A DNA stretch of 64,000 bases from a virus, in IMG/VR virus record IMGVR_UViG_3300017971_000228, positions 34,107-98,106 of that record. One strand, given 5' to 3'. A program made the translations under genes and the position numbers. This document shows positions 33,924-47,966 of the stretch, piece by piece (positions within the stretch are counted from its first letter, which is position 1; every line of letters begins with the position of its first letter). The notes under the pieces were generated by a model, which did no database searches, was not told the origin of the DNA, and saw only the letters and a program-made list of their open reading frames with translations.

Positions 33924-34157
33924 GTGATTACGCTGGAGATGTCGGAAGAGACGGCTACGGTTCTGGCCTATTGCATCGGTACGGCGTTGAGCCTGCATGT
34001 GGGCGCAGCCATAGACTATCTGGCGGCTGGAGGGGTAACGTCGGAGGGATTGGACAGTCTCTGTCGGGTGTATGAAGAGATCGTGGAGTGTGTGACGGGC
34101 TGTAGCGTCTATCCGAGTGGTGAGGACGTGGCTGACTGGCTAGGAGGCCAGGGATGA
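33924..34157 (+). CDS. Hypothetical protein, paralog of the next gene
   Basis: ITLEMSE..A / YPS.EDV..WL.GQ shared with 34154..34384. Confidence 0.55.
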   Translation: MITLEMSEETATVLAYCIGTALSLHVGAAIDYLAAGGVTSEGLDSLCRVYEEIVECVTGCSVYPSGEDVADWLGGQG

Positions 34158-36028: not shown

Positions 36029-36850
36029 GTGACGGATCTTTTGGTGCACCAAAACTCTGGGCGCCAACTCTACGCCACCAGCATCTGCCAAAACACTCCC
36101 GAGCACGTCCAGATTATCATTCACCAGCTGATAGACGGGCCTATGCCGGACATCGAAGAAGTGTCCTCCACCATCGGGGAACTGCTTAGGGCGGATGCTG
36201 ACATCAAGTGGGGTGTAGGGGACTTGCTGGTAGCGTTGCATCGTCGGGCTGGCGGTAGCAGGGATGACTGGGTGCAATACGTCAAGCAGGTCGCGTCCAT
36301 GATTCCCAACGTCGGCTATCACACACTCTGGACGTACTACGCTACGGCACTGATGTTCCCGGAAGAGAAGCGGATCGAGGACAAGGCGTTTAGCTGGCAT
36401 GTAGAGCTCATGCACCTTGCTGGCCACCAGTTGCCAAGGTCTGGGTGGTCCCAGGAAGAGCACGAAGCGGAACGCATAGAGAAGGTGGCGGAATTGCTGG
36501 AGACGGCGGCCGAAGAGGACTGGTCGCTGTCGAGGGTAAGGCAGGAACGGTTGGAGAGCCCGAGGGATGGGCTGGAGTTCACGGTTCCGATACCCGGATG
36601 GGTGGATGTAGTGGACTCGGAGACAGGTGAAGCTGAGCAGTTCTTAGTCTTTGGCAAGGATGCGCCAGTGAAAGCCGCGAAGTATGTCCTGGGGTGCCTA
36701 CGGATACAGTCGGGAAGGCATGAACCTATTGAGATAAGGGAGAGTCATGGTTGTCTGTGGAGTGACGGTAACGTTGTGGCATATCTTGGGACTGGCAAGC
36801 TGGCCCAGCGGGCGTGGCAGAAGGTGAAGGGGAAGGTGGTGGGTGGGTAA
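36029..36850 (+). CDS. LmbU-like DNA-binding protein
   Basis: W.VGD, F....R....FSWH.E, A..E.WS...R pattern. Confidence 0.5.
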   Translation: MTDLLVHQNSGRQLYATSICQNTPEHVQIIIHQLIDGPMPDIEEVSSTIGELLRADADIKWGVGDLLVALHRRAGGSRDDWVQYVKQVASMIPNVGYHTLWTYYATALMFPEEKRIEDKAFSWHVELMHLAGHQLPRSGWSQEEHEAERIEKVAELLETAAEEDWSLSRVRQERLESPRDGLEFTVPIPGWVDVVDSETGEAEQFLVFGKDAPVKAAKYVLGCLRIQSGRHEPIEIRESHGCLWSDGNVVAYLGTGKLAQRAWQKVKGKVVGG

Positions 36851-38012
36851 CCTGGGGCCATTCGAGCTAGATACCATCGTCGTGGGCGATTGTCTGGATG
36901 TGATGAAGCAGATGCCGGACAACTGTATTGACACCATTATCACCGATCCACCATACGGATTGGAGTTCCTGGACACTGATTGGGACAGCGGAGTGCCTGG
37001 GGTAGCTCACTGGCGGGTCGCTCTTCGAGTTGTCAAACCAGGAGCAATTCTTATGGCCTTCGGAGGAACTCGGGCTCACCACCGTTTGATGTGTGCCATC
37101 GAGGATGCAGGGTGGGAGATCAGAGACTGTATGATGTGGCTTTACGCTCAAGGCACCCCAAAAAGCCACAATATCAGTAAGGCGATAGACAAGGTGGCGC
37201 ATAACGGTGCGGGTGCCGCCACGTCTTGGGTCGGATGGGGGACTGCACTGAAACCTGCTTGGGAACCCATCATAGTAGCGATGAAGCCGAGAGAGGGGAC
37301 GTATGCGAACAATGCATTGAAGTGGGGTGTAGCGGGGCTGTGGATCGATGGGGGCAGGGTTGGTGGGGCTGATGGTCGTTGGCCACCAAACTTACTGCTG
37401 ACCCATGACGAAGAATGTGAAACGGCCATGGGCAGCAGCTCAGAGACTGTTACCTATTCGAGGTGTTGTCCTGGATGTCCAGTTCGCATACTGAGTGAAC
37501 AGAGCGGAGAGAGGCCGAGCGCTGGGTACTATCGTGATCCGGCAGGGGATTGTCAACCACGAAGAGGGGCGAAGGATATGTTCGGTCATCGCTATCGAAA
37601 GGATGCACGAAGAAGGACGGCGCGATATAGCGGAGATACTGGGACCGCCGCTCGGTTCTTCTACCAGCCTAAATCATCATTCTTAGAACGGGAAGAGGGT
37701 CTTATCGGCAAGTTGCCCTGTGTGGTTTGTGGGGGGCTAGACACAAAGACTCACGTTGGTTCGGAAGGCAGAGAAATCAACTGTCATAGAAACAACCATC
37801 CTACGGTAAAGCCTCTAGCGTTGATGGAGTACCTGTGCTGTCTCACAAGAACACCATCAGGGGGTATAGTAGCTGATCCCTTTGCTGGTAGTGGATCAAC
37901 GTTGCTGGCAGCAAAGAAGACGGGGCGCAGCTATTTCGGTTGTGATAACAATTCTAGGTACGTTAGGATCGCCAAGGCGCGCTTGTCTGCTGTGCAATTG
38001 GCCCTACTGTGA
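36843..38012 (+). CDS. DNA amino-methyltransferase #2
   Basis: TDPPY, FGGTR..HR...AIEDAGWEIRD, LKPAWEPI, HPTVKP, DPFAGSGST. Confidence 0.92.
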   Translation: MGNLGPFELDTIVVGDCLDVMKQMPDNCIDTIITDPPYGLEFLDTDWDSGVPGVAHWRVALRVVKPGAILMAFGGTRAHHRLMCAIEDAGWEIRDCMMWLYAQGTPKSHNISKAIDKVAHNGAGAATSWVGWGTALKPAWEPIIVAMKPREGTYANNALKWGVAGLWIDGGRVGGADGRWPPNLLLTHDEECETAMGSSSETVTYSRCCPGCPVRILSEQSGERPSAGYYRDPAGDCQPRRGAKDMFGHRYRKDARRRTARYSGDTGTAARFFYQPKSSFLEREEGLIGKLPCVVCGGLDTKTHVGSEGREINCHRNNHPTVKPLALMEYLCCLTRTPSGGIVADPFAGSGSTLLAAKKTGRSYFGCDNNSRYVRIAKARLSAVQLALL

Positions 38013-38244: not shown

Positions 38245-39050
38245 TAAGAGTGTTCCCGCGTCGAACGTCGTTGACGCCAAGTGATCCCTATGCTTTTATT
38301 GGTGATCCTCCCCTGTGGCGGCCAGAGGCAGATGAAGTGCATGTCTCGGTTGCTTTTACCTGGGACATTGAAGAGGGACAGCGGCTGAGGGGTGCCTGGG
38401 CAAACCACTATGAGATTGTCAAGATCGGTGGACCCGCTTTCGGTGGGAATGGCGACTTCATTCCTGGACGCTACGTCAAGCCCGGAGTGACGTTCACGAC
38501 TAGGGGTTGTCCGAACCACTGTCCTTGGTGTCTGGTGCCAGAGCGCGAAGGGGAGCTTAAGCTGCTGGACATCAAGCCTGGGTGGATCATACAGGACAAC
38601 AACCTATTAGCAGCACCGCGCAAGCACAAGGAGGAAGTACTGGCGATGCTAAAGGCCCAGAATCGTGCAGTTTCGTTTTCTGGGGGCTTAGACGCACGAT
38701 TGCTCGATTCATGGTTCGCAGATGAACTGCGGTCACTGAAGATTGGGCAGGTCTTTCTAGCAGCGGATACCGTGGGGCGATTGCAGTCAGTTGAGAAGGC
38801 CATTGACAGATTATCATTCCTGAACAAGTGGCAGATCCGAGTGTACACCATGATCGGATATGGTAGAGAGACTATGGCGGATACTGAGGCGCGGATGGAA
38901 GCAGTCTGGCAGATGGGCGGAACGCCTTTTGCCCAACTCTATCAGCCGCCCGACCAGTACCTGAACTATTCGCGTGAGTGGAAGGCACTGATGAGAACGT
39001 GGAGTCGTCCGGCGGCGATGGTGGCTAAGCATGGAGGATGGCATTCATGA
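38241..39050 (+). CDS. Radical SAM protein
   Basis: TTRGCPNHCPWC (CxxxCxxC), DNNLL, GLDARL. Confidence 0.85.
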   Translation: MIRVFPRRTSLTPSDPYAFIGDPPLWRPEADEVHVSVAFTWDIEEGQRLRGAWANHYEIVKIGGPAFGGNGDFIPGRYVKPGVTFTTRGCPNHCPWCLVPEREGELKLLDIKPGWIIQDNNLLAAPRKHKEEVLAMLKAQNRAVSFSGGLDARLLDSWFADELRSLKIGQVFLAADTVGRLQSVEKAIDRLSFLNKWQIRVYTMIGYGRETMADTEARMEAVWQMGGTPFAQLYQPPDQYLNYSREWKALMRTWSRPAAMVAKHGGWHS

Positions 39051-39529
39051 AGATTCTATCCGTAGACCTAGCCGCTCGCGCCTCCGGCTTCGCACTCTTC
39101 GACAACGGTGAACTCATCTCCCACGGTACGATTATCATTCCCAAGCTGGACTCGCACCACCAGTGGATGTGGGATCTGTACGAGGACTTCTGCGATAGCT
39201 TGCCCTGGGACGATGTGGAGCACGTGGTGGTGGAGTTCGACCAGAACATCGCGGCCTATTCCAAGATGAATGTCAAGAGCAAGCGGCGGATGTACTCGGC
39301 GATGGACGTGCTGATCCTGGCGAAGCATGCCATGTCGGATGCGGAACTGCATGAAGTCAAGCCTCGATCCTGGCAGAAGGCGATGCTGAGCGGATTCCCC
39401 GGCAGCACCAAGGACGCATCGGTAGCGGTGGCGCGGTCCATCTGGCCCTCGGAAGCGTGGACGGAGCATGATGCGGACGCGGCGTTGATGGGGGAGTGGT
39501 GGAGGAAGGATCGTCAGTGGGAGAGCTAG
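39047..39529 (+). CDS. RuvC-like Holliday junction resolvase
   Basis: ILSVD......G, VVVE, P.SWQK, HDADAA. Confidence 0.8.
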   Translation: MKILSVDLAARASGFALFDNGELISHGTIIIPKLDSHHQWMWDLYEDFCDSLPWDDVEHVVVEFDQNIAAYSKMNVKSKRRMYSAMDVLILAKHAMSDAELHEVKPRSWQKAMLSGFPGSTKDASVAVARSIWPSEAWTEHDADAALMGEWWRKDRQWES

Positions 39530-42500
39530 GGCCCTATGAACCCGACACCATAGTCCATGGCCATGTGCTGGAAGTGCTAAGACAGCTGCCGGACGAGAGT
39601 ATTCATTGCTGTATCACCTCACCTCCCTACTGGGGCCTACGCGCATACGGCACCCAGCTCCAGGTCTGGGGAGGGGATAGCGAGTGTCGGCATGTGTGGG
39701 GATTAGAGCAAGCGAACATCTGTCAGACCGCCGGTCTGACAGATAAGCAGATGACCAACAGGGGGAGCTATCATGGTGGAGGCACCAATAGTTTCTGTTC
39801 CCTCTGTGGTGCATGGCGTGGGGAGCTAGGACTTGAACCGTCGCCTGAACAGTTTGTTCAACACTTGGTGGAGATATTCAGGGAAGTGCGGCGGGTGTTG
39901 AGACAGGATGGGACGCTGTGGCTGAACCTCGGCCAGTCATACTGGGGTGGCAAAGGACAAAGCAATTATGCGTTCCAAGAACGGCGAGAGAGTCCATCCA
40001 TTGAAGGTAAACAGCACAACATAACCAGCATGGGGGAAACGCGACCGTCGGATGGTAGTCACGCTGTGTTCAAGCCTAAAGACCTCGTCCCCATCCCCTG
40101 GATGGTAGCGATGGCTCTTCAGCAAGATGGCTGGTGGTTGCGGTCATCCATCATCTGGTGTCTTGCTGGTGAGACTCCTCTACTATGTCGGGTTGACGGT
40201 CGGATCTGGCACGGCACCATTGAGGAGTTGCAGCGCCGATGGGCAGAGTGGCAGACAGTTGAAATGCCCACGATGGGCAAGGGCTACTCCAGGCACTGGG
40301 TCAAGGTTCGTTCTGTGGTGCAGACTGGAGTGCGTGAGGTGAAGCGCATAACTCTCACCAACGGTGCAGAGGTGCTGGCTACCGGCGACCACAAGTTTCC
40401 GGTCAGAAAGAGCACTCTGGCGGGGAGGACATTGAAGTGGATGAATGCGCCTGTCTCAGTACCAGTTAGCGATCTGAGTCCTGGAATGTACCTGTACCAG
40501 AACACACAAATTGAGTCTGGTCTCCCAGAAGGAACAGTACAGGACTACAAGAATGGATACTGGGTTGGCTTCTACTTAGCAGAAGGATATCGAGTAAGTA
40601 CGAATTATGAAACTCTCAGGTTGGCCTGCGGAACACAGGACCGAGAGATTATCAATCGGCTGATATCCTGGGGGATCCCCTTGACTGTAATTGAGAGAGA
40701 GGGGGAGCGACTAACTATCAACCTGCGCATAAGACATGGCGGGGCGGCGTGGAGGGATGTTATCCTATCTCATATAACAGGCCGAAGTGCTGCTACCAAG
40801 AAGCTTAAGCAGGACGTCTTCAACCGCAGTCTCTTATTCTTAGAAGGACTGTTGTATGGCTTTCTGGACGGGGATGGAACTTGGGATGAAGCGGGGCGTC
40901 GGTGGCGCGTCGGGATGACCGCTAAGAACAAGACCCTAGTGAATCAATTCGAGGCCATTTGCCGAATCCTGGGACTAGAGTTTCGGCGTGAGAGGATCAA
41001 GGATGTGGGGGCGTTTGGCAAGGTACATAAGGCGGTCAGATTCAACATCATCAATCTCGCAGCCAACTACCGAGGTAAGGGCAAGATCGTTGTAGAAGAT
41101 ACGGTTACTAGGAGAATCCGCAGCATTGATCCAGCAGGAAGTAGATCTGTTTACGACCTAGAACTAGAGCCGTTGTACGGTGGCGAAAGAGCGAATCAGT
41201 GGGTGCCATCTAGTGGTGAGACTTCGGATGCGAGGAAGGTTCCCTACAATCATCTCTACTTCCTTGGCAATGGCATCTGGACTCATAACTGCAAAGGATC
41301 ATCTTTCGCTACCCATCAAGCCGAGTGTCCTCACTGCAACCACAAGTTCGAGACACAGTACAGCGGATCATGTATGCCTGAGTCGGTGAAAGATCGCCCC
41401 ACTCAGAGCTACGAATACGTCTTCTTGCTGGCGAAGGACAAACGGTATTTCTATGACCAGGAAGCGGTAAGGGAACCGCACTCCCGCGACTGGTCGCGGG
41501 AGTCATGGGCACAGCAGGTCAACTATGGCACCAAGACACAGAGTTCGCTGGGGCAGCTACATGGGGGGAACAAGACAATAGCGGAGACATACAATCCTTC
41601 TGGCCGCAACTTGAGATCGGTTTGGACCATCAACCCCCATCCTTTCAATGACTGGATACAAACCGTCCGTCTGGTCCGTGTGGGACTGGATGGCGTTTCC
41701 GATGGCATGATGCACATAACGTCTCCAAGTTGTCCAGTTCATGGTTGTTTGGGTCGTCCAGATGATGGACGTGGAGAAGATGGTCAGAGCCACATATCAC
41801 GCACTGATGGTTGTCCCGACCCAGAGCCTGAGTCCTTGCTTGCTTATAGTTCCACACGTCCCTTGCTGCCGAAGCCGGGTTGTAGTTCGGGTTCGCAGGT
41901 CCACCAGTGTTCTCATGCTGCCATTGGCCATAGCAATCAAAACCACAGAACGGACCGCGCTCGGTTGACCAGTCCTTCATGTAGGCTTTGCGCTCAAAGC
42001 TCTTGCCGCATTGGCGACAAACAAGAGTTACTCGTTTGCGCTGTGCTTCATGAGAACATGCCCGACTGCAATACTTGGCCGGATGAGATGGGCGCTCGTT
42101 TACTGGATCGAATCCCTTACCACATTGTTGACAAGTCTTCATACTTGCCTCCTTCCTGTACTTGTGGATTCTATCACAAAGTTACCAAGGAGTCAAGTCA
42201 TTTCGCAACCTATCCCCCCGAACTCATCACCCCCATGATCCTTGCTGGCACTTCAGCCCGTGGGGTTTGTCCTAAGTGTGGGAGTCCGTGGGAGAGGGTG
42301 GTGAAGGGGACAGGCAATATGGTGCAACAACACTGGGCTCCTGGTACACAAGAAAAGATAGACACTGCCCAGGGTAAACACGGCAATAGCAGCGTATTCA
42401 ACACAGGGTACATCGAACAGCGGACTACTACTGGCTGGCAACCCACCTGTTCATGCGGCCACGAAGATACCGTGCCGGCTATCGTCTTGGACCCCTTCAT

Positions 42501-42627
42501 GGGCAGCGGTACGACAGCGATGGTCGCCCTGGAGAATCGTCGTCAGTTCCTGGGTATTGAACTGAATCCAGAGTATGTAGCGATGGCAGAGAACCGCATA
42601 GCGGCGGTGCAGCCGAGGATGCTATGA
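39517..42627 (+). CDS. DNA amino-methyltransferase #3 (SPPY type) carrying an intein and an in-frame insertion that encodes an antisense HNH
   Basis: TSPPYWGLR, KPKDL..IPW.VA.ALQ.DGW.LRS.IIW, MPESVKDRPT, RSVWTI, HFATYP, DPFMGSGTT. Confidence 0.9.
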   Translation: MGELGPYEPDTIVHGHVLEVLRQLPDESIHCCITSPPYWGLRAYGTQLQVWGGDSECRHVWGLEQANICQTAGLTDKQMTNRGSYHGGGTNSFCSLCGAWRGELGLEPSPEQFVQHLVEIFREVRRVLRQDGTLWLNLGQSYWGGKGQSNYAFQERRESPSIEGKQHNITSMGETRPSDGSHAVFKPKDLVPIPWMVAMALQQDGWWLRSSIIWCLAGETPLLCRVDGRIWHGTIEELQRRWAEWQTVEMPTMGKGYSRHWVKVRSVVQTGVREVKRITLTNGAEVLATGDHKFPVRKSTLAGRTLKWMNAPVSVPVSDLSPGMYLYQNTQIESGLPEGTVQDYKNGYWVGFYLAEGYRVSTNYETLRLACGTQDREIINRLISWGIPLTVIEREGERLTINLRIRHGGAAWRDVILSHITGRSAATKKLKQDVFNRSLLFLEGLLYGFLDGDGTWDEAGRRWRVGMTAKNKTLVNQFEAICRILGLEFRRERIKDVGAFGKVHKAVRFNIINLAANYRGKGKIVVEDTVTRRIRSIDPAGSRSVYDLELEPLYGGERANQWVPSSGETSDARKVPYNHLYFLGNGIWTHNCKGSSFATHQAECPHCNHKFETQYSGSCMPESVKDRPTQSYEYVFLLAKDKRYFYDQEAVREPHSRDWSRESWAQQVNYGTKTQSSLGQLHGGNKTIAETYNPSGRNLRSVWTINPHPFNDWIQTVRLVRVGLDGVSDGMMHITSPSCPVHGCLGRPDDGRGEDGQSHISRTDGCPDPEPESLLAYSSTRPLLPKPGCSSGSQVHQCSHAAIGHSNQNHRTDRARLTSPSCRLCAQSSCRIGDKQELLVCAVLHENMPDCNTWPDEMGARLLDRIPYHIVDKSSYLPPSCTCGFYHKVTKESSHFATYPPELITPMILAGTSARGVCPKCGSPWERVVKGTGNMVQQHWAPGTQEKIDTAQGKHGNSSVFNTGYIEQRTTTGWQPTCSCGHEDTVPAIVLDPFMGSGTTAMVALENRRQFLGIELNPEYVAMAENRIAAVQPRML
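40159..41289 (+). mobile_element. Intein with LAGLIDADG homing endonuclease (377 aa)
   Basis: Begins W|CLAGET; block B AT.DH.F; motifs VGFYLAEG and YGFLDGDG; VYDL; ends THN|C. Confidence 0.93.
41645..42142 (-). CDS. HNH endonuclease with N-terminal zinc fingers, nested antisense within MTase #3
   Basis: CxxC..YCSxxC and CxxC..FCxxxC fingers, NPNY, RD...C..CG...LHVHH.....N....NL.TLC.SCH...H; GGAGG SD 5 nt upstream. Confidence 0.9.
   Translation of the reverse strand: MKTCQQCGKGFDPVNERPSHPAKYCSRACSHEAQRKRVTLVCRQCGKSFERKAYMKDWSTERGPFCGFDCYGQWQHENTGGPANPNYNPASAARDVWNYKQARTQALGRDNHQCVICGSDHLLHVHHLDDPNNHELDNLETLCASCHRKRHPVPHGPDGRFVSSH
42168..42196 (-). promoter_or_regulatory. Sigma70 promoter for the nested HNH gene
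   Basis: TTGACT-17 bp-TAGAAT with a TG extension on the minus strand. Confidence 0.8.
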
Positions 42628-42751
42628 GATGGCAGCGACGTGACAAGAAGCTACGCCGGCGACGAAGCCGGATTATCAAACATGGCAAGGCGTTCGGTGA
42701 GATGGTAGCCAACGCCATACGCAAACGCAGAGACAAGACTCGGAGGAAGAA

Positions 42752-42988
42752 GTGAGACTCACGGTGTTTACGACGAATATGTGCCATGCCTGTCACGAGG
42801 CGATGGACTATCTGAGAGGACGCAATTATCAGTTTGCGGAGGTGGATATACGGAGCGCAGAAAGCATGTTACGGGTGCGCACAGGAGGGAAGAGGCCAAC
42901 AGCACCGACACTGTACGATTCAGATTCGGGAAGGCTAGTGGTGGGGTTCCAGCCTGATATGTATGACAGATTCCTGGACGGGAGATAG
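42752..42988 (+). CDS. NrdH/glutaredoxin-like protein
   Basis: FTT..CHAC, APTL, GF.PD. Confidence 0.8.
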   Translation: MRLTVFTTNMCHACHEAMDYLRGRNYQFAEVDIRSAESMLRVRTGGKRPTAPTLYDSDSGRLVVGFQPDMYDRFLDGR

Positions 42989-42990
42989 GC

Positions 42991-43641
42991 ATGCTGGCGA
43001 ACGAACGAGTGTATGAAGCGGTGGTGAATGCCGGGCGATGGGTGGATTCAGCTGAGATAGCCGATTTAGTAGGGGCCACGCGCGGGACCGCCCAGGCGCA
43101 CCTTACGAAGCTGGCCAGTCGGGGGAAGATCGTCAGGCACAAGGATGAGGTTGTCGGGGGCAACAAGTGGCAGTGGATGTATGTGTATGAGAACGGTAAG
43201 GACATCTGGAAGCTGCCCGGGGCCCCGCAGTGGACTTCAGTAAGGGAATCGGTCTATCAGACGCTATACGCTTCCGATCGGGAGATGACAACGAATGAGA
43301 TAGCCAAGTCTATGGGGAAGGGCAAGTCGTCCGTCCGGATGAGTCTGATACGGTTGCATATTCAAGGGCGAGTCAGGAAGCGGATGGAAGAACGGGTCGT
43401 CAGCGGTAGGCGGCGACAAGTGTTGGTCTGGGAAGCGGTGGAACCGAAGCCAGAAGAAGTACGGATAGATTATCATTCTCCATTGGATGACTGGTGGGCT
43501 GAAGGACAGGGAAGTGTCCGAGACGCGATAGAGCGCAACTGGGGCCGGTGGTGCGGGGTAGTAGGAGCGGGAAGCTATGCGAAAGGAGACTCGGATGCAG
43601 CGAAAGGAGGCGCGTCGAATGGTCCGGCTGGGGGCCTATGA
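42991..43641 (+). CDS. Tandem winged-helix DNA-binding protein
   Basis: Two EIA...G......L.KL...G repeats. Confidence 0.7.
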   Translation: MLANERVYEAVVNAGRWVDSAEIADLVGATRGTAQAHLTKLASRGKIVRHKDEVVGGNKWQWMYVYENGKDIWKLPGAPQWTSVRESVYQTLYASDREMTTNEIAKSMGKGKSSVRMSLIRLHIQGRVRKRMEERVVSGRRRQVLVWEAVEPKPEEVRIDYHSPLDDWWAEGQGSVRDAIERNWGRWCGVVGAGSYAKGDSDAAKGGASNGPAGGL

Positions 43642-46237: not shown

Positions 46238-46412
46238 GCCGTGGGTAGTTGGTTGGGTTGACGGTATGCCAAGGGATTTCCAAGAGGGAAGGTGAGTAGG
46301 GGGGTATGATACGACGCATCGGTTGGGGCTGGTTCCTAGCGCATTGTACGGTAGCAGTGCTGATGTGGGCGCTGATGATTAGCGGGGTGATGTATTGGGT
46401 AGAGCGGATACT

Positions 46413-47966
46413 GTGAGTTGGAAGGTGGAGTGTGCGGACGTATTGGACTGGGCGGAGCGGTACGATGGAAAGAAGTTCCACGCCCTCTTGTGTGATCCAC
46501 CTTATGAGCTTGGTTTCATGGGCAAGGATTGGGATCGGAGCGGGATAGCCTTCAACCCTGACACCTGGGCGGCTCTAGCAGAGCACTTGTATCCAGGGGC
46601 GTTTGGGATGGCGTTCGCCAGCAGTCGGGGCTGGCATAGGCTTGCGGTGGCGATAGAGGACGCGGGGCTTAGGATACACCCATCCATTTTCATGCTCGGA
46701 TGGAGTTATGGGAGCGGATTCCCCAAAGCGACCAACATATCGGGTTGGATTGACAAGAGTGCTGGACATCCACCAAGGGGACATCGGATAGCGGTAGCAT
46801 CTCGTTATCATCCCGATGGCACATTTGAACCCAATGGGGAGAATCTTCCCCCACATGAGTATAAGGAACCAATGGCAAGAGTCTGGCAGTCTCACCGTTA
46901 CGGATTGCAGGCGATGAAACCCGCCCTTGAGCCCATCATCGTCTTCCAAAAACCCTACCCCAAAGGCAAGAAGACGTGGGAGAGCATCGTGGAGACTGGA
47001 GCGGGGGCTTTGAATATAGACGGGGGGCGGATAGCGACTGATGAGAATTGGTCTTATCCGAACGGTCCAGGAGGCTGCAAGTCTAGCCAATTTCATTATC
47101 AAGGTCGAGCTACAAAACCAGCAGAGAGTCATTCTCAGGGCCGCTGGCCACCCAATTTCTGCCTCATTCATTCCCCAGAGTGCGAGCGGGTTGGGGAGAA
47201 GAAGATTGAGAGCAAGAGCAGGGCGACGGCTGGGGGTAGGCGTAAGGGTGGACAAGCCTACGGTGACTATAAGGGGTATGAGAATCCACCAGAGATCGGT
47301 TACGCCGACTCCGACGGCCTCGAAACCATCTCCGACTGGCGGTGTGTTCCTGAGTGTCCAGTGTATCGTCTTGGACTCCAAAGTGGGGAGAGGGCTGGGC
47401 CGTGGGGGAAGGAAAGTGAAAGTACTCGGGATACGAGCTGGTTCAGTGGAAGGACTGACAGCTATGGCAAACTCTATCGTGATACCGGTACTGCCGCCCG
47501 TTTCTTTCATCAATCCGACTGGAGCTATGAGATCGCTGAACGTCTAGCGATGACGGATCCGGTGAGGTACTGTGCGAAGGCGGGAAGGAAGGAGAGAGAT
47601 GCGGGGTTGGATGAATGGGAAGCCAAGATGCCAGGACCAGAAACATTGACGGCTGGAATTGAACGCAAGAACGCTAAGCGGCGGCCTGAGCGTAGGTCCA
47701 AGAACCCTATGCGCAACCCTCATCCTACTGTCAAACCCATCTCTCTAGCCAAATGGCTGGCTACGCTACTTCTACCGCCAGTCGAATACGCTCCCCGACG
47801 GATTCTCATTCCTTTTCTTGGAAGTGGCAGTGAAGCGATAGGTGCTGGCCTGGTAGGTTGGGAGTTTATCCTAGGTATTGAGATGGGCGCCGACACGGTA
47901 GAGATTGCTGAAGCGCGGTTGCGTCACTGGCTAGACAAGCCACGACAAGCGGAGATGGACTTGTGA
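46413..47966 (+). CDS. DNA amino-methyltransferase #4
   Basis: CDPPYELGFMGKDWD, AIEDAG, YGSGFPK, KPALEPI, HPTVKP, PFLGSGSE. Confidence 0.92.
   Translation: MSWKVECADVLDWAERYDGKKFHALLCDPPYELGFMGKDWDRSGIAFNPDTWAALAEHLYPGAFGMAFASSRGWHRLAVAIEDAGLRIHPSIFMLGWSYGSGFPKATNISGWIDKSAGHPPRGHRIAVASRYHPDGTFEPNGENLPPHEYKEPMARVWQSHRYGLQAMKPALEPIIVFQKPYPKGKKTWESIVETGAGALNIDGGRIATDENWSYPNGPGGCKSSQFHYQGRATKPAESHSQGRWPPNFCLIHSPECERVGEKKIESKSRATAGGRRKGGQAYGDYKGYENPPEIGYADSDGLETISDWRCVPECPVYRLGLQSGERAGPWGKESESTRDTSWFSGRTDSYGKLYRDTGTAARFFHQSDWSYEIAERLAMTDPVRYCAKAGRKERDAGLDEWEAKMPGPETLTAGIERKNAKRRPERRSKNPMRNPHPTVKPISLAKWLATLLLPPVEYAPRRILIPFLGSGSEAIGAGLVGWEFILGIEMGADTVEIAEARLRHWLDKPRQAEMDL

Follow-up and report, generated by a model that had tools for sequence, protein, structure and literature searches.

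The window analysed here is a stretch of 64,000 nucleotides (nt) from a virus, positions 34,107 to 98,106 of the IMG/VR record IMGVR_UViG_3300017971_000228 (a 98-kb viral record with terminal repeats), and this text concerns an HNH endonuclease gene that lies within one of its DNA methyltransferase genes, on the opposite strand. The frame of the host gene runs without a stop along its entire length, and Pfam N6_N4_Mtase (PF01555) matches its product in three stretches (3.3e-32). Motif IV (SPPYW, amino acids (aa) 42-46) precedes motif I (DPFMGSGTT, aa 999-1007), which is the order IV (S/DPPY)...X...I (FxGxG) of the beta-class N6/N4 DNA methyltransferases. Two segments of the product, aa 222-598 and aa 718-901, are foreign to the methyltransferase family; the first is an intein and the second is the reading, in the methyltransferase frame, of the DNA that carries the HNH gene (Table 1).

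The limits of the second segment come from insert-free alleles. In more than 50 insert-free homologues from viral contigs the motif RSVWT[IV]xTxP[FY]xxA runs directly into HFATYPPEL, whereas the window has 184 additional codons at this PF/HFATYP junction, and the peptide they encode matched no Pfam or PHROG family. Read from the other strand, the same DNA encodes a protein in which two N-terminal Cys4 zinc-finger-like motifs are followed by an HNH core (CxxC...HH...N...CxxCH...H), with matches to Pfam HNH (PF01844; 7e-05, 23.3 bits for a cut-off of 21.4), to PHROG 1271 (1e-24, residues 2-151) and to PDB 5h0m (2.5e-06). At the left junction the HNH stop codon (41645-41647) overlaps the F-N codons of the methyltransferase, and at the right junction the -35 box of the HNH promoter adjoins the H-F-A codons. 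Since these two signals stand at the two junctions, the insert is one antisense expression cassette and nothing else. Contigs of two public DNA runs cover positions 41000-42800 with 0 differences and span both junctions, although either run may be the source of the record and this cover is therefore no independent support. Only these two DNA runs, and no RNA run, were listed as containing the DNA.

A first-pass annotation, made by a model from the letters alone, had already described an insert of about 540 nt that splits a normally contiguous methyltransferase motif, a plus frame that stays open through it, an intact zinc-finger HNH gene on the minus strand with a GGAGG Shine-Dalgarno (SD) sequence and a TTGACT-17-TAGAAT promoter, and an insert that amounts to exactly one cassette with no recognisable intron or intein. 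Each of these points was borne out by the unbroken open reading frame (ORF), the profile matches, the location of both expression signals and the searches for splicing elements described below. What that annotation omitted is the LAGLIDADG intein in the same gene. The intein is canonical (CLAGET...WTHN/C, with two LAGLIDADG motifs, at IIW/K), and its Pfam matches, Intein_splicing at 6.3e-05 and LAGLIDADG_3 at 0.0078, both fall under the curated cut-offs. It is missing from most homologues, including the HNH-bearing L002, L003 and L005, and is a second selfish element in this methyltransferase gene, independent of the HNH insert. Directly after it (41290-41380, plus strand, aa 599-626) there is an extra Cys-rich stretch of about 24 aa with the motif CPHC, at a position for which homologues have KPNPMPESV; this stretch may form a further small metal-binding loop.

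Table 1. Features of the methyltransferase gene and of the antisense HNH cassette, in window coordinates
Feature	Coordinates	Strand	Basis
Host gene, beta-class N6/N4 DNA methyltransferase, 1043 aa as encoded	39496..42627	+	ORF and Pfam
LAGLIDADG intein (aa 222-598)	40159..41289	+	Pfam and motifs
In-frame, stop-free insert of 184 codons (aa 718-901), between PF and HFATYP	41647..42198	+	Insert-free alleles
HNH endonuclease gene, 165 aa	41645..42142	-	ORF and profile matches
SD sequence GGAGG, 5 nt upstream of the HNH ATG	42148..42152	-	Sequence
Sigma-70-like HNH promoter: -35 TTGACT (42191-42196), 17-nt spacer, TG-extended -10 TAGAAT (42168-42173)	42168..42196	-	10 of 12 matches
C746-P-V-H749, first half of the proposed zinc clasp, antisense to HNH codons H-E-L-D-N	41731..41742	+	Conservation
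C888-T-C890, second half of the proposed zinc clasp, in the HNH 5' untranslated region (UTR) between -10 and SD	42157..42165	+	Conservation
N-terminal structured arm of the insert (aa 718-750; predicted strands 720-729, 738-741)	41647..41745	+	AlphaFold2, predicted local distance difference test (pLDDT) 81-90
Central insert (aa 754-860), predicted disordered, antisense to most of the HNH coding sequence	41755..42075	+	AlphaFold2, pLDDT about 27
C-terminal structured arm of the insert (aa 866-901; predicted strands 876-878, 891-901)	42091..42198	+	AlphaFold2, pLDDT 79-86

Relatives of the insert and the methyltransferase frame across it

A search with the HNH protein recovered relatives in viral contigs (L002-L005), in metagenome contigs (L158-L191) and in one Solirubrobacterales genome bin (L192, L193). 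In about 35 diverged alleles an antisense HNH gene lies inside a homologous methyltransferase, at the identical site VW..PF/../HFAT. The antisense arrangement holds wherever the flanking DNA suffices, at HNH identities of 36-76%, and the methyltransferase frame is open across the HNH gene. The catalytic residues (columns HH, N, CxxCH and H) are kept by 29-30 of 30 HNH alleles, and the Cys columns are invariant or nearly so. The two contigs of the Solirubrobacterales bin carry identical HNH and insert sequences in the match regions and may represent prophage copies or an assembly duplicate. In the most divergent allele (L190:177-709, HNH 36% identical) the insert and the C-terminal half of the methyltransferase are kept, with stops in all frames where the N-terminal half is expected, and this may be a decayed or rearranged allele. 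Contig L103, taken at one point for a further insert at the site, proved to be a false match of the motif, its site being empty with the sequence STYPGKHFATYP.

We also built a profile of 29 methyltransferase-frame insert peptides and searched it against 1.84 billion cluster representatives, of which 373 were matched (305 at E ≤ 1e-10). Among the matches listed, most align over nearly the whole profile, within proteins 236-959 aa long, which implies that gene callers routinely read the methyltransferase through the insert and that the family is large. The ten clusters that were looked up all consist of metagenome proteins.

Methyltransferase codon positions 1, 2 and 3 lie opposite HNH positions 1, 3 and 2, and a stop arises in the methyltransferase frame when an HNH codon ending in TT, CT or TC is followed by a codon starting with A. 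Permutation of the synonymous codons of the window HNH gene gave an expectation of 2.4 such stops, with none present (P(0) = 0.037), while its other two antisense frames hold 3 and 11 stops; taken alone, the open frame of the window is only suggestive. Across 31 distinct complete HNH genes, however, the same permutation gave 95.7 expected methyltransferase-frame stops against 2 observed, and because of this depletion the stop-free frame cannot be put down to mere chance. The per-allele probability of finding no stop ranges from 0.0003 to 0.3 (geometric mean 0.014), and each of the two remaining antisense frames contains 0-16 stops per gene. Both observed stops belong to L163, at its contig end; L188 has stops as well, in the final codons of its contig, whose identity to the open allele L164 is 99%. 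The inserts vary from 177 to 235 codons in length, their UTR and promoter part being variable as well, and the methyltransferase register is kept in every case.

These counts bear on the possibility that the methyltransferase is dead or split and that its read-through frame arises by chance or from composition, as a by-product of the HNH gene on the other strand. Such a by-product is made easier by the pairing of the two frames, as the methyltransferase frame is the least stop-prone of the three antisense frames, with 1-5 stops expected per allele, and L190 does lack the N-terminal half of the enzyme. The frequent plus-frame stops that a dead enzyme would be expected to show in homologous inserts were nevertheless not found, 30 of the 31 alleles being stop-free at the low per-allele probabilities given above; moreover, catalytic motifs are kept in both halves, which are modelled as one domain, and a Cys pair described below, which in most alleles lies beyond the HNH coding sequence, is conserved. 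The observations already contradict a dead or split enzyme, and we give this explanation hardly any weight. Translation of the methyltransferase through the insert is, judging from the alleles compared, very likely.

Dual coding, the predicted loop and the absence of splicing elements

The two strands of the insert are not conserved to the same degree. HNH proteins that are 60-68% identical are paired with methyltransferase frames that are 23-36% identical, and in an alignment of 29 inserts the methyltransferase-frame identity between alleles is 18-39%. Pairwise differences at HNH codon positions 1, 2 and 3 amount to 0.365, 0.336 and 0.584, respectively; a coding gene normally shows this pattern, whereas the methyltransferase frame would require the opposite one, so the HNH gene is the mainly selected frame. 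Within the methyltransferase frame of these 29 inserts, the only invariant residues are C29, C171 and C173 of the insert and one Ala, while Pro30 and His32 are conserved in at least 90%. They make up two short motifs near the insert ends, C-P-x-H and C-x-C.

The first motif is overprinted on the HNH gene, with the codons H-E-L-D-N-L-E opposite the C-P-x-H region. The HNH third positions opposite S-P-x-C-P-x-H differ between alleles by 0.07, 0.19, 0.07, 0.00, 0.30, 0.19 and 0.13, whereas the third positions of other conserved His, Cys and Leu codons of the HNH gene differ by 0.5-0.77. Synonymous HNH sites are thus frozen precisely where the opposite strand encodes the Cys, Pro and His, which is a mark of dual coding. 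The second motif lies within the HNH 5' UTR in most alleles and overlaps the first HNH codons or the -35 box in some; the residue between its two Cys is unconstrained (T, Q, L, K, S, E, C or I), and the Cys codons vary between TGT and TGC only. One allele reads CPIC instead of CPxH. C-x-C is kept in 136 of 140 database representatives with the HFA motif, and the first motif is CP[VLI]H in most of them.

Both motifs belong to the inserted DNA and are lacking in empty alleles. We modelled with AlphaFold2, using a 41-row alignment, the intein-less enzyme of L003 (526 aa) and the full window protein. The methyltransferase core is confident in both models (pLDDT above 90 in the window), and in Foldseek the L003 model matches CcrM (6pbd, 2.3e-13), M.BceJIV (8urk, TM-score (TMt) 0.78-0.80), M.RsrI and M.PvuII. 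In both models the insert has confident beta-strand ends, comprising its first 33 or so and its last 20-35 or so residues, and the conserved CPxH and CxC both sit in these structured arms; between them the chain is predicted to be disordered in the window protein, and in the L003 insert, which has the same confident ends, aa 301-434 have a pLDDT of about 30. We lean towards the view that CPxH and CxC constitute a zinc clasp on a stem that carries a floppy loop, a reading to which both the conservation and the models point. A subgroup of alleles (L182-L187 and L189, with an HNH protein of about 210-217 aa) has a -35 box, TTGACA, that overlaps the C-x-C codons (ACAAGTACA); there the promoter is shifted relative to the clasp, and the clasp stayed.

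No Rfam family was matched at E ≤ 1 over window positions 39000-43500, nor at gathering score in 15 other alleles. An intron, either of group I or some other self-splicing RNA, with an antisense endonuclease gene and with an open frame that is incidental or serves another purpose would not be without parallel, because HNH genes are frequent in phage group I introns and, as the title of a published study (PMC9548176) indicates, nuclear rDNA group I introns with antisense endonuclease genes exist. Yet an intron would leave unexplained some 96 missing stops, length changes that always come in threes and the conservation of the Cys, Pro and His codons, and on these grounds we do not regard the insert as one; besides, the HNH cassette occupies almost the whole insert, so that no room is left for a ribozyme core. 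We hold an intron to be exceedingly improbable.

Removal after translation, by a non-canonical intein with an antisense endonuclease gene whose structured ends form a minimal splicing domain, fits an insert that is in frame and stop-free and has both ends predicted to be structured, and antisense LAGLIDADG and VSR-like endonuclease genes occur inside inteins, some of them of actinophages (bioRxiv 10.1101/2025.01.02.630785). The insert itself, however, looks different. Its first residue is variable (N, S or T, followed by G or D and then W), with no conserved nucleophile; it ends without a terminal His-Asn; and the residue after it is H, or S or D followed by H, with no conserved Cys, Ser or Thr at +1. 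No Hint or intein family of Pfam was matched at E ≤ 1 by any of the 29 insert peptides, while the genuine intein of the same protein was detected. The structured residues number only about 70, around half a Hint fold, and three invariant Cys with a near-invariant His are the pattern of a metal site. A non-canonical intein is in our judgement very unlikely.

Expression signals and probable mobility of the HNH cassette

We scored promoter matches out of 12 within 90 nt upstream of the HNH start, with 306 pieces from the same loci as controls. A score of 9 or more was reached by 12 of the 31 distinct alleles and by 1.6% of the controls, and a score of 10 or more by 7 alleles and by none of the controls. 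Several further alleles combine a TG-extended -10 with a weaker -35, and an SD-like motif is present in 21 of the 31. These signals suggest that the HNH protein is probably expressed from a promoter of its own. A transcript from that promoter would oppose the methyltransferase mRNA, and any regulatory effect of this kind is speculation.

The distribution of the insert was examined on a tree of 64 methyltransferase cores (316 columns, a quick LG+G4 run, long branches). The 16 insert-bearing enzymes need 13 state changes on this tree, where shuffled labels need 14.4 on average, and well-supported branches alone force at least 7. The nearest methyltransferases of the window, L083 and L133 (50-52% identity), have no insert, and the window HNH is 60-70% identical to HNH proteins housed in methyltransferases only 44-53% identical to its own host. 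Pairwise identities of HNH and methyltransferase are nearly uncorrelated (r = 0.17 over 120 pairs), the HNH being the more similar of the two in 102 of the 120. The insert is thus sporadic among alleles at one conserved site, as homing endonuclease genes are, and this scatter, together with the mismatch in divergence and the single motif-coding site, makes up the pattern of a homing element. Spread of the cassette by homing is, on these comparisons, fairly probable.

Taking these observations together, we consider it likely that the element is an antisense HNH homing cassette tolerated as a translated, unspliced loop. A mobile cassette of about 550 bp, consisting of promoter, SD and ORF, would have entered the methyltransferase in antisense at PFxG/AHFAT, a position in the target-recognition region, and would be spliced neither at the RNA nor at the protein level. 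Ribosomes translating the methyltransferase mRNA would pass through it and the enzyme would gain about 184 residues, with selection holding the methyltransferase frame stop-free and in register and having shaped both ends of the insert. The first 33 or so and the last 35 or so of the inserted residues would form a beta-stem, probably with one zinc bound through C-P-x-H and C-x-C, and the middle 110 or so, the antisense reading of the HNH gene, would make a disordered loop, so placed that the methyltransferase halves stay together and the enzyme may retain its activity. The HNH protein, made from its own promoter on the opposite strand, would most likely cut or nick insert-free alleles in co-infecting phages or prophages, and recombinational repair would copy the cassette in.

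Several points weigh against this account. Zinc binding is deduced from residue conservation, and clear promoter matches are found in only about 40% of the alleles. Neither blastn with the gene nor tblastn with the HNH protein gave a match in 50,697 phage records, and there is no tie to a known host. Forcing the insert-bearing methyltransferases into a single clade lowers the log-likelihood by 127.6, with p = 0.051 in the approximately unbiased (AU) test; monophyly is consequently not formally rejected, which leaves room for a long vertical association with losses, and as evidence against a single origin the result is suggestive, not decisive. Finally, the HNH gene is intact in 31 of 31 alleles, where a pure homing cycle predicts some decay, and this may hint at a domesticated role.

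It is for the intactness of all 31 HNH genes that we keep as the main rival a domesticated HNH-methyltransferase module, nested and inherited mostly vertically with occasional loss, in which, for example, the nuclease attacks unmethylated competitor or host DNA and the methyltransferase protects the phage, or the antisense transcript times the methyltransferase. Conservation of the catalytic residues down to 36% identity, the same single site in all relatives found, the formal survival of a single clade in the AU test and the adaptation of the host frame to the insert, which implies long co-residence, all agree with it. What such a module does not readily account for is that insert-bearing enzymes are as scattered as shuffled labels, that HNH and methyltransferase have diverged almost independently, that the closest relatives of the window enzyme are insert-free and that the insertion lies within conserved motif-coding sequence, the classic homing pattern. 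We regard domestication as unlikely, though far less so than either form of splicing.

Comparison with known systems

The usual view is that a homing endonuclease gene can persist within another gene in just two ways, by hiding in a self-splicing intron or an intein or by splitting that gene. The first-pass annotation had proposed that the cassette follows another strategy, as a selfish dual-coding element tolerated as a protein loop. This proposal is strongly supported as far as the element itself goes, by the open frame of some 35 alleles, the frame-specific constraint on CPxH and CxC, the AlphaFold2 models, the patchy distribution and the promoter and SD signals; that the strategy is new to the field was overstated, because the ShiLan domain is a precedent for an in-frame, unspliced insert with a hidden HNH gene. 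The family described here is in this respect a variant of a published idea.

In the ShiLan domain, about 202 aa are inserted, in frame and with no stop, into the DNA methylase of a mycobacteriophage; the methylase contains an intein as well (Gosselin et al., 2023, PMC9957025). An HNH gene, read in frame +3 of the same strand, was shown to be concealed in the domain (Arsenault, Gosselin & Gogarten, 2025, PMC11855218). In the latter paper the insert is described as free of intron and intein features, a loop is predicted, homing is deduced from the patchy distribution and no ribosome-binding site (RBS) was found, and the HNH ORF begins with a GTG 18 bp into the insert and ends with a TAA in its last 4 nt (PMC11855218). 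An antisense arrangement is not mentioned in the 2025 paper, and the parts of the two papers (PMC9957025, PMC11855218) used here report neither stop-depletion statistics nor a constraint on the host frame.

As the ShiLan-type example for comparison we used gp54/gp55 of Mycobacterium phage Applejack (PP978873; PMC12613952), L197:6659-8218 on the minus strand. The ShiLan insertions and the cassette are alike in several respects: an insert of about 200 codons lies in frame and stop-free in a phage methylase of the PF01555 type with no intron or intein signature, a zinc-finger HNH is hidden in another frame, a loop is predicted off the enzyme core, the distribution is patchy with homing deduced from it, and the host gene can also carry a LAGLIDADG intein. 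The differences are that the ShiLan HNH gene lies on the same strand with no RBS found, while the window HNH gene lies on the opposite strand with its own promoter and SD; that the site in Applejack gp54 follows GFPKS, while that of the window is PFxG/AHFAT; and that the two HNH proteins are only 25% identical. Applejack gp54 also belongs to another subfamily, being 47% and 42% identical to the window methyltransferases at 36843-38012 and 46395-47966, respectively, and not to the host gene of the cassette. The window therefore shares with this type the in-frame, stop-free insertion, but neither a same-strand HNH gene nor homology of element or site, and a resemblance noted for ShiLan, of the beginning of the insert to the sequence that follows the site, is not visible in the window insert.

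The two other methyltransferases just mentioned (36843-38012 and 46395-47966, both on the plus strand) are empty at the ShiLan site; elsewhere in each of them, a variable loop is bracketed by the two parts of a split Cys/His pair (H..EC ... C.P.CP). Like the proposed clasp of the insert, these are Cys/His motif pairs flanking a loop of variable length; unlike it, they are part of the enzyme itself and enclose no nested gene, whereas both halves of the proposed clasp in the window insert are encoded by the inserted DNA. The Applejack insert, read in the methylase frame, has CDC near its start and CSWC near its end, both missing in the empty Rhynn gp57 (L198), and judging from these motifs the same clasp principle may be general to such elements.

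A second set of relatives in principle is formed by inteins with antisense homing endonuclease genes (Gorbalenya, 1998; Gogarten et al., 2002, as cited in bioRxiv 10.1101/2025.01.02.630785). There too the endonuclease is read from the strand opposite to a translated in-frame insert, and the host frame must for that reason stay open. In those elements, though, a Hint domain removes the insert, while the insert of the window has no splicing motifs and appears to be kept in the mature enzyme. Phage genes for free-standing homing endonucleases that break up their host genes into 'genes in pieces', such as mobE in nrdA of Aeh1 and mobA with genes 39/60 of T4, resemble the cassette in being endonuclease genes with no intron or intein inside a useful or essential phage gene that still works. 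They differ from it in that the host gene yields two polypeptides and the endonuclease lies on the same strand, while the window insert would be part of one continuous polypeptide.

Set against these systems, what is new here is the opposite strand, the promoter and SD belonging to the cassette, the lack of a splicing domain, the other methyltransferase subfamily and site, and the evidence of adaptation of the host frame, which to our knowledge is the first quantitative evidence of selection on the host frame of a hidden-HNH insert. The ShiLan work left open whether the host frame is in fact translated and how the nuclease is expressed, and the antisense family addresses both by comparative evidence: its host frame stays open and has selected residues of its own, and its HNH gene, being on the other strand, has an ordinary promoter and RBS. 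The family is, in addition, a large natural data set of two overlapping antisense genes that are both selected, useful for studies of overprinting; it is relevant for gene callers, which annotate only the methyltransferase and overlook the HNH gene; and the permissive site with its self-contained clasp might serve to insert large loops into methyltransferases.

Beyond the single family, we tentatively put forward, as a possibility that falls somewhat short of an even chance, that hidden-HNH elements represent a third route to harmlessness, one at the level of the protein, in which the element brings its own stem and zinc clasp and these extrude the rest as a disordered loop. The clasp would in that case be encoded in the host frame at the ends of the element and be partly overprinted on the HNH motif itself, and the antisense family and the ShiLan family would be two independent instances of the same solution.

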